IMG/VR virus record: IMGVR_UViG_3300027286_000002
From: a virus
Lineage: Duplodnaviria > Caudoviricetes
DNA: 64,000 nt
Direction: 5' to 3' (one strand)
Both the position numbers and the translations under genes were made by a program. Positions 25,226 through 25,410 of the stretch are shown here, in pieces (positions within the stretch are counted from its first letter, which is position 1; each line of letters begins with the position of its first letter). The notes below the pieces were generated by a model. The model did not search any database. It saw only the letters and a program-made list of their open reading frames with translations, and was not told the origin of the DNA.

Positions 25226-25263
25226 AAAAAAAGGCATAGTAGTTTTATTTACTATGCCTTTTT
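25226..25263 (-). terminator. Rho-independent terminator (potentially bidirectional)
   Basis: AAAAAAAGGCATAGTA-gttttatt-TACTATGCCTTTTT inverted repeat. Confidence 0.85.
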
Positions 25264-25410
25264 AAACAACAACAACCACTCGCACTACTTGGTGGAAAAC
25301 CACACCAAATAAAGGAGAAGGATTTTTTTAGTAGTGTCTTAATCACCACGACTAAAACACTACAAACAAAAACAAACAAACAAGTTCACACAAACATTGC
25401 CTGTCCATTT
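25264..25410 (-). ncRNA. Candidate structured small RNA upstream of terminator
   Basis: 14-bp hairpin 25331-25363 (two GU pairs on minus), second hairpin 25289-25308, unpaired UCCUUCUCCUUU between them. Confidence 0.45.

Follow-up and report, generated by a model that had tools for sequence, protein, structure and literature searches.

What is the short element that lies downstream of the major capsid gene in this phage, and is it transcribed as an RNA of its own? The window, as we call the whole 64,000-nucleotide stretch of viral DNA analysed here, has a G+C content of 31% and carries, between the capsid gene and the next gene, an element of ~183-185 nt (25226-25410, minus strand). The first-pass annotation had read it as a translation-silencing small RNA (sRNA) that exposes an anti-Shine-Dalgarno (anti-SD) sequence between two hairpins, or else as a regulatory RNA encoding a short hydrophobic peptide. 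The regulatory RNAs that giant phages encode have hardly been explored, and to our knowledge no example has been described for the phage G-like freshwater clade.

Gene order and features of the locus

The genes around the element are all on the minus strand. The sequence features that had been described for the element were all present, and they are given here with their neighbors in the direction of transcription.

26531-27412, minus strand: major head protein (MCP) gene (PHROG 2522, 6e-51)
26489-26458, minus strand: T1, intrinsic terminator of the major capsid gene, 13-bp stem and U run; upstream boundary of the locus
25431-26381, minus strand: LAGLIDADG homing endonuclease gene (Pfam PF03161, 2.6e-18)
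25414-25442, minus strand: promoter-like motif TTGCAA-N17-TATGTT, preceded by an A-run, with a putative start near 25408
25408-25352, minus strand: 18-codon ORF MDRQCLCELVCLFLFVVF, overlapping the 5' part of the element
25374-25406, minus strand: hairpin 1, with a purine-rich 5' arm and a GU-rich 3' arm, YUGUUUGUUU(U)GUUU; 6 G-U pairs among 18
25363-25331, minus strand: hairpin 2, 14 bp, GUAGUGUUUUAGUC-GUGGU-GAUUAAGACACUAC, with the loop GUGGU and exactly two wobble pairs
25329-25311, minus strand: A-run and CU tract, AAAAAAA-UCCUUCUCCUUU (UCCUUCUCCUUU at 25322-25311), the claimed anti-SD sequence
25276-25321, minus strand: extended hairpin 3 (core 25312-25285), closed by CC/GG
25226-25275, minus strand: (GUU)n tract UUGUUGUUGUUU directly 5' of the terminator, then T2
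25263-25228, minus strand: 14-bp stem of the intrinsic terminator T2, with a U7 tail to 25226
25149-25221, minus strand: promoter-like region and ribosome-binding site of p328, with many invariant columns; conserved separately from the element
25213-25203, minus strand: ATCTTTATAAT, promoter-like motif of p328, conserved after T2
25165-25155, minus strand: AAAAAAGGACA, ribosome-binding site of p328, conserved after T2
24162-25148, minus strand: gene after the element, for a 328-aa protein named p328 here

The MCP is 87.5% identical to that of the 485-kb uncultured phage LR745208 and ~38% identical to that of Bacillus phage G. The endonuclease gene has its own TATAAT (26411-26406) and AAGGAGG site, and the 282-nt intergenic region between it and the p328 gene contains the element. 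A family match was searched for with the p328 protein and none was found.

The ATCTTTATAAT motif before p328 resembles ATCTT(A/T)TTTATA(T/A)A, a motif found ~40 nt upstream of four plus-strand genes (42115-42128, 43735-43748, 47180-47192 and 48635-48647). The p328 ribosome-binding site is located in a small predicted local hairpin in every lineage (25155-25175 in the window; also L003, L113, L116 and L067), with the sequence CCUU-AAAA-AAGG in the window and GGAG-N-UAUCC in the others. These predicted folds suggest a conserved cis masking of the p328 translation start by the local hairpin.

Fold and covariation of the element

The minimum free energy of the inferred transcript (25408-25222) was -63.2 kcal/mol, as compared with -34.3 ± 3.5 kcal/mol for shuffled sequences (z = -8.26), and none of 200 dinucleotide shuffles was as stable. 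The plus strand reached only -42.5 kcal/mol, because many of the pairs are G-U. The GU-rich leader of the first-pass annotation was present, and this GU-rich 5' part folds into hairpin 1 (25406-25374). An equivalent of hairpin 1 was the minimum-energy fold in 10 of 11 lineages when sequences were folded singly; in L003 it appeared only in a longer fold. RNAalifold gave no consensus for the alignment of promoter and hairpin 1, since its helices are weak and rich in GU and the alignment does not follow the structure.

The 14-bp hairpin with two strand-specific wobbles was found at 25363-25331, and its G-U pairs fit the minus strand only. In the alignment of hairpin 2, which had the window, L002, L103, L003 and L006 as rows, three of the 14 pairs were changed on both sides and 98.6% of the cells were paired. 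The strong terminator at the 3' end was also confirmed (14 bp and U7, 25263-25226). In L103, a U-A pair of T2 became U-G, which pairs on the minus strand only, and in L006 the T2 stem carries several changes that are compensatory when read by eye (the automatic alignment offsets the L006 row). The check for covariation in relatives thus found compensatory changes in both hairpin 2 and the terminator. The covariation rests on few events, because only three independent lineages carry the window-type element.

A further hairpin after the tract was found as described (core 25312-25285). Its CC/GG closing pairs are kept in the window, L103, L003 and, in a slightly shifted register, L002, and an unrelated stem sequence occupies the hairpin-3 position in L003.

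The element is kept without the endonuclease

Relatives of the locus, ~100 loci from IMG/VR and JGI metagenomes, were collected by searching with the capsid protein and p328. Two further pattern scans of IMG/VR gave no more window-type copies. The endonuclease is a presence/absence polymorphism among the relatives. In L002, L103 and the L003 type, all of which are without it, the gap between the capsid and p328 genes is 400-413 nt, and the element is kept with identities of 99%, 97% and 77%, respectively. The concern that the element might be only the endonuclease 3' UTR was thus not borne out, as endonuclease-free relatives keep it. The endonuclease cassette of ~1 kb starts a few bases after the U-run of T1 and ends ~10 nt before the TTGCAA motif, and the endonuclease ORF takes its last codons from the conserved flank. 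Cargo was always located between T1 and the A-run/TTGCA motif, leaving the unit intact.

The segment from T1 to the putative sRNA promoter (25443-26457 in the window) is an insertion hot spot, occupied by the same LAGLIDADG family in at least four lineages, with endonuclease-free alleles in the lineage of the window and in the L107-type lineage. Two small ORFs of 99 and 110 aa lie at the insertion site in L006 (4831-5766), and a 537-aa ORF and an 82-aa ORF in L105 (345-2213). A AGTTAGCAAGTTA-type motif is repeated between the capsid stop codon and T1 in the endonuclease-free L002 (4005-4060) and L003 (1685-1735), and is absent from the window.

Several features would suit a passive 3' region, that is, stabilising hairpins and a back-up terminator or insulator for the capsid and endonuclease transcripts, with no RNA function of its own. 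The element lies downstream of a very highly expressed gene, it is physically the 3' UTR of the endonuclease gene in this genome, and T2 could terminate transcription from either side, as an A-run precedes it and a U-run follows it. We nevertheless consider this reading rather improbable. T1 is conserved in the endonuclease-free L002 and L003. In endonuclease-free genomes the capsid message has already ended at T1, 24 nt ahead of the TTGCA motif, and an insulator alone would not be expected to have a conserved promoter-like motif, hairpin covariation and a loop conserved in sister lineages.

A promoter-like motif precedes the element

The promoter-like motif was aligned for 11 distinct sequences, from lineages whose p328 proteins are 58-100% identical (mean column identity 63%). 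TTGC was invariant, an A-rich run preceded it, the spacer was 17 nt (16-18 in two rows), and TATnnT followed the spacer in most rows. The motif of the element matches 8 of the 12 positions of the sigma-70 consensus, which may not be the consensus of the host. A consensus scan had missed it because only these eight positions match. The unit has a terminator on either side, and a conserved upstream motif belonging to p328 follows T2. The features of an sRNA gene in the sequence are therefore its own promoter-like motif, its own intrinsic terminator and no conserved ORF.

The pattern TTGCAA-N15-20-TGTTTA occurs at six sites in the window, five of which are intergenic. The other four intergenic sites, 59023-59051 (plus strand) and 52015-52043, 4655-4683 and 4241-4269 (minus strand), are located 30-40 nt before start codons and share the recurrent motif TTGCAATAA-N-AAGTGTTTA. 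Judged from the sequence, this motif is probably one promoter class of the phage, of which the promoter of the element would be a variant. The copy at 4241-4269 would drive a 63-aa ORF (4021-4212) that was misplaced by simple longest-ORF calling.

Taken together, the comparisons showed that the element is a conserved, strand-specific, non-coding structured unit, with a promoter-like motif at one end and a terminator at the other, and that it is kept independently of the endonuclease. It looks like a conserved gene for a structured non-coding RNA, and that RNA is probably a regulatory small RNA.

The locus is modular in sister lineages

One to three modules of promoter, hairpin and terminator were found at the same position in all lineages with a p328 identity of at least 58%; lineages with a more distant p328 had no such modules. 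Sister lineages carry homologous modules of promoter and hairpin 1. A separate terminator follows hairpin 1 in L116 and L114; after it come a perfect TTGACA-17-TATTTT, a hairpin whose loop is CU-rich, and a strong terminator. L115 and the L113, L107, L108 and L112 types resemble the window in combining these parts in a single unit. A U/GU-rich tract stands directly 5' of the terminator hairpin and its U tail in every module of the locus.

The covariance model of the CU-loop module found eight distinct members. Their stems have been swapped wholesale (AAGCUAUCUAC, UAAGACCUUAG and AAGCCAUUUACC), with 20 of 25 pairs changed on both sides and 96.9% of cells paired in an alignment that was fitted to the model and leans towards its structure. 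The loop of 16-19 nt kept its sequence UUCU(U)GUCCUUUCUU (UUCUUGUCCUUUCUU) despite the replacement of the stems. Its candidate seed reads GUCC or GUCG in the L113 and L107 types. The 3' half of the window element matched this model at E = 0.46, essentially via the terminator. As the match runs through the terminator, we regard the 3' half as an analog of the CU-loop module and not as a proven homolog. G001, a complete relative of 316 kb, had no copy of this module.

The position of the unit raises the alternative of a cis-acting leader, in which the promoter, the hairpins and T2 form a termination or attenuation unit that sets the timing of p328 and of the head-module genes after it, with regulated read-through or an antiterminator of the phage as possible means, and the short RNA is a by-product. 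The element is on the same strand as p328 and directly upstream of it. In the giant Pseudomonas phages 201phi2-1 and phiKZ, promoters closely followed by terminators were shown experimentally upstream of structural genes, and these units, which lend the leader reading a precedent, were discussed as timing devices and as "5'UTR-derived sRNAs" (PMC11512511). Like the element, these 5'UTR-derived and intergenic sRNAs are promoter-to-terminator units of less than 250 nt directly upstream of a structural gene of a giant phage, with a position conserved among related phages and a conserved fold; they were detected by ONT-cappable-seq, and the element is known here from its sequence (PMC11512511). 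The element shares this position and size, with ~183 nt from the inferred start to T2 and a place between the capsid and p328 genes that is kept in lineages with a p328 identity of at least 58%. It differs in having no sequence similarity to these units, in belonging to a phage G-like clade, in being modular (1-3 units) and in bordering a homing-endonuclease insertion site. The likeness is one of positional class and not of a homologous family.

Three observations speak against the leader. No alternative antiterminator pairing with the 5' arm of T2 was evident by eye, p328 keeps a separately conserved promoter-like motif after T2, and the two or three complete tandem modules of sister lineages would be unneeded by a single attenuator. 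A cis-acting leader is thus unlikely in our judgment, though it is the alternative that we take most seriously. We instead propose, with a probability of roughly 55%, that the element is an independently transcribed small RNA within a modular sRNA locus.

The CU-rich tract and ribosome-binding sites

The AAAAAAA-UCCUUCUCCUUU sequence of the first-pass annotation was present, but its CU tract was predicted to be paired rather than free. In the partition function, the unpaired probability was 0.01-0.12 for CUCC and 0.10-0.40 for the CC of AUCC; the A-run was partly open (0.19-0.71, with the minimum in the middle of the run). UCCUUCUCCUUU is the 5' strand of the extended hairpin-3 stem, as predicted in the window and in three relatives (L002, L103 and L003). 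The tract is also variable. CUCC is changed to CUCA in L002 and L103, the only kind of change in copies that are otherwise 97-99% identical, and in L103 a 3'-side change lets the CUCA pair again. The window and L002 differ at just two positions over 282 nt, both within the A-run and CU tract. L003 retains UCCUU only, and L006 has no CU tract. The first reading is corrected in this respect, as the supposed seed is buried and variable in this genome.

Pyrimidine runs like UCCUUCUCCUUU are rare on the sense strand (~4-5 in 64 kb). The CU motif complements the general AAAGGA ribosome-binding consensus of the phage, in which AAAGG is the top 5-mer before start codons (31/71). When the window was scanned for the complement of the CU tract and for that of the GU tract, neither had a site besides the element itself. 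RNAduplex against the 71 start regions in the 64-kb window reached -14.2 kcal/mol at best, and 30% of the shuffled seeds did equally well. The target scan was therefore no better than shuffled seeds and gave no specific target.

The sister lineages bear differently on the idea. Their loop UUCUUGUCCUUUCUU complements AAGAAAGGA, the usual ribosome-binding site of the phage, and the window contains 10 copies, as compared with 2.75 expected, of the loop's complement AAGAAAGGACA when up to one mismatch is allowed; most of them are at ribosome-binding sites. What stood of the anti-SD claim is thus a looped CU-rich motif conserved in sister lineages, and what fell is its exposure in this copy. Because of the conserved loop, the idea is still alive for the locus as a whole, where anti-SD action is plausible; for this copy, the case for the mechanism is weak. 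Of the broader claim of a translation-silencing sRNA, the part that held is the discrete conserved non-coding unit, with its promoter-like motif, its own terminator and compensatory changes.

In the sister phage L011 (12296-12340, minus strand), a gene for a DenV-like pyrimidine-dimer glycosylase (PF03013, 3e-17) has AGAAAGGACAGA as its ribosome-binding site. This site is perfectly complementary over 12 nt to the loop of L011's own module, UCUGUCCUUUCU (-19.1 kcal/mol), as a single case. The window has no such DenV-like gene.

Several bacterial sRNAs occlude Shine-Dalgarno sites with C/U-rich motifs, among them RNAIII of S. aureus, RsaE/RoxS and LhrC of Listeria. The element shares with them a structured sRNA form with an intrinsic terminator and a pyrimidine-rich motif complementing a ribosome-binding site. 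Their motif is located in a hairpin loop, as it is in the sister lineages, whereas the motif of the window is predicted within a stem and is not conserved in the nearest relatives. Unlike the element, these RNAs are chromosomal and not phage-borne, and they have no sequence or Rfam similarity to it. The c4 antisense RNA of P1 and P7 is processed from a longer transcript and has its target in its own operon. It is likewise a phage-encoded small structured RNA, and it blocks a ribosome-binding region by pairing; in contrast, the element has no complementary site nearby, and the Rfam search gave no c4 match.

The Hfq-binding module of enterobacterial sRNAs reportedly consists of a U-rich stretch, a terminator hairpin and a poly-U tail (Ishikawa et al. 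2012). The modules of the locus similarly have a U/GU-rich tract 5' of their terminator hairpin and U tail, but these tracts are GU repeats, (GUU)n or (GUUU)n, and not plain U runs. By analogy, the GU repeats may be a protein-binding or a second pairing surface.

The 18-codon ORF is not conserved

The 18-codon ORF was present at 25352-25408 as described. The reading built on it, a small hydrophobic peptide, either a membrane peptide or a type I toxin, possibly translated from a leaderless message, did not survive the comparison, as the ORF is absent or different in every other lineage. An AUG at the inferred transcript start would make leaderless translation conceivable. However, neither this AUG nor the ORF is conserved. 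There is no AUG at that place in L003, L006 and L115, and, as read from the alignments, the ORFs of L105 and L106 are unrelated and 2-14 codons long, and that of L003 is a different frame of 39 codons. No conserved ORF was found in the element among the aligned relatives. The ORF also has no ribosome-binding site. Its hydrophobicity is a by-product, since GU-rich sequence encodes such residues in any frame; the V/C/F/L content follows from a sequence that is itself paired in hairpin 1. A peptide product is very improbable on these grounds.

Comparison with known RNA families

Rfam 15 (4227 models) was searched with positions 24000-27000 of the window at E values up to 10, the families of interest being CRISPR-DR, tracrRNA, c4, pRNA, RsaE and RNAIII, as far as they are in Rfam. 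No match reached its gathering score, and the best one inside the element was mir-192 (15.5 bits against a gathering score of 54). The same held for seven relatives, in which the best match was L20_leader (31.3 against 58.7 bits). This L20_leader match, in a sister locus, was rejected as an artefact, its score coming from the terminator and the U-rich tracts. DNA searches of GenBank phages for near and distant relatives gave short chance matches only. A replication origin or R-loop was also rejected, as there was no GC-skew inflection at the locus.

Membership in a described RNA class (a CRISPR repeat mimic or natural single guide, P1 c4, phi29 pRNA, an intron fragment or a ribosomal-protein leader) was considered because hairpin 2 starts with GUUUUAG, GUUUUAGUC/GAUUAAGAC superficially resemble a repeat/anti-repeat duplex, and the L20_leader match, weak as it is, would point to a leader. 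The Rfam scores in the window and the seven relatives argue against all of these classes. As for a CRISPR mimic, L006 has GCCUUAG with compensating changes, so that the helix is kept and GUUUUAG is not, and no cas, IscB, TnpB or reverse-transcriptase gene is nearby. The 19-mer of hairpin 2 had eight matches in 185,579 bacterial genomes, about the chance number, and the five Providencia/Arsenophonus matches that were checked are all inside a conserved coding gene. The CRISPR repeat or single-guide mimic was rejected, given that no CRISPR or tracrRNA match was found in Rfam and GUUUUAG is not conserved; a known class in general is extremely improbable.

The 19 nt that form the top of hairpin 2, with the GUGGU loop among them, recur in the freshwater proteobacterial MAG Umea3p4_bin-0836 (L122, 2083-2119). 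There they fall in the 5' region of a gene for a small secreted protein, and over 40 nt the two sequences are 85% identical. Chance alone would give about four such 19-mer matches in the collection of L122.

Proposed model and its meaning

In the model that we favor, an independently transcribed sRNA, transcription would proceed on the minus strand from TTGCAA-N17-TATGTT with a start near 25408 and end at T2, at ~25226, giving an RNA of ~183 nt. The element would be one allele of a modular, fast-evolving small-RNA locus, which would occupy the space from T1 to the promoter of p328 in a narrow clade of giant freshwater phages with Bacillus phage G as a relative. In genomes that carry the endonuclease, the same sequence would also be the 3' end of the endonuclease message. 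In this model the RNA would be a trans-acting regulator that works by base pairing or by binding a protein. The surfaces that may serve this function are the pyrimidine-rich tract or loop complementary to AAAGGA and the conserved GU-rich tracts before the hairpins.

A bolder version, which we hold to be quite improbable, is that the locus is a "translation-reprogramming" RNA island, in which mimics of the 16S rRNA 3' end and GU-repeat tracts mask the AAGAAAGGA sites of a class of messages. The mimic would be the loop UCCUUUCU in the sisters, a sequence identical to the 3' end of Bacillus-type 16S rRNA, and the latent UCCUUCUCCUUU here, perhaps opened by a partner. Extended AAGAAAGGA sites would be soaked up or masked, and translation would be switched between phage gene classes or away from the host. 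There is a hint in this direction because the loop of a sister phage pairs perfectly, over 12 nt, with the ribosome-binding site of the DenV-like gene.

What is new here is an sRNA candidate, with an unusual modular layout, in a clade for which none had been described. Its conserved promoter motif, covarying stems and kept loop make the locus a compact test case, set beside a very highly expressed capsid gene and a site where homing endonucleases insert recurrently. RNA-based control of translation would join the toolkit of giant phages, provided that these RNAs are produced and do target ribosome-binding sites.
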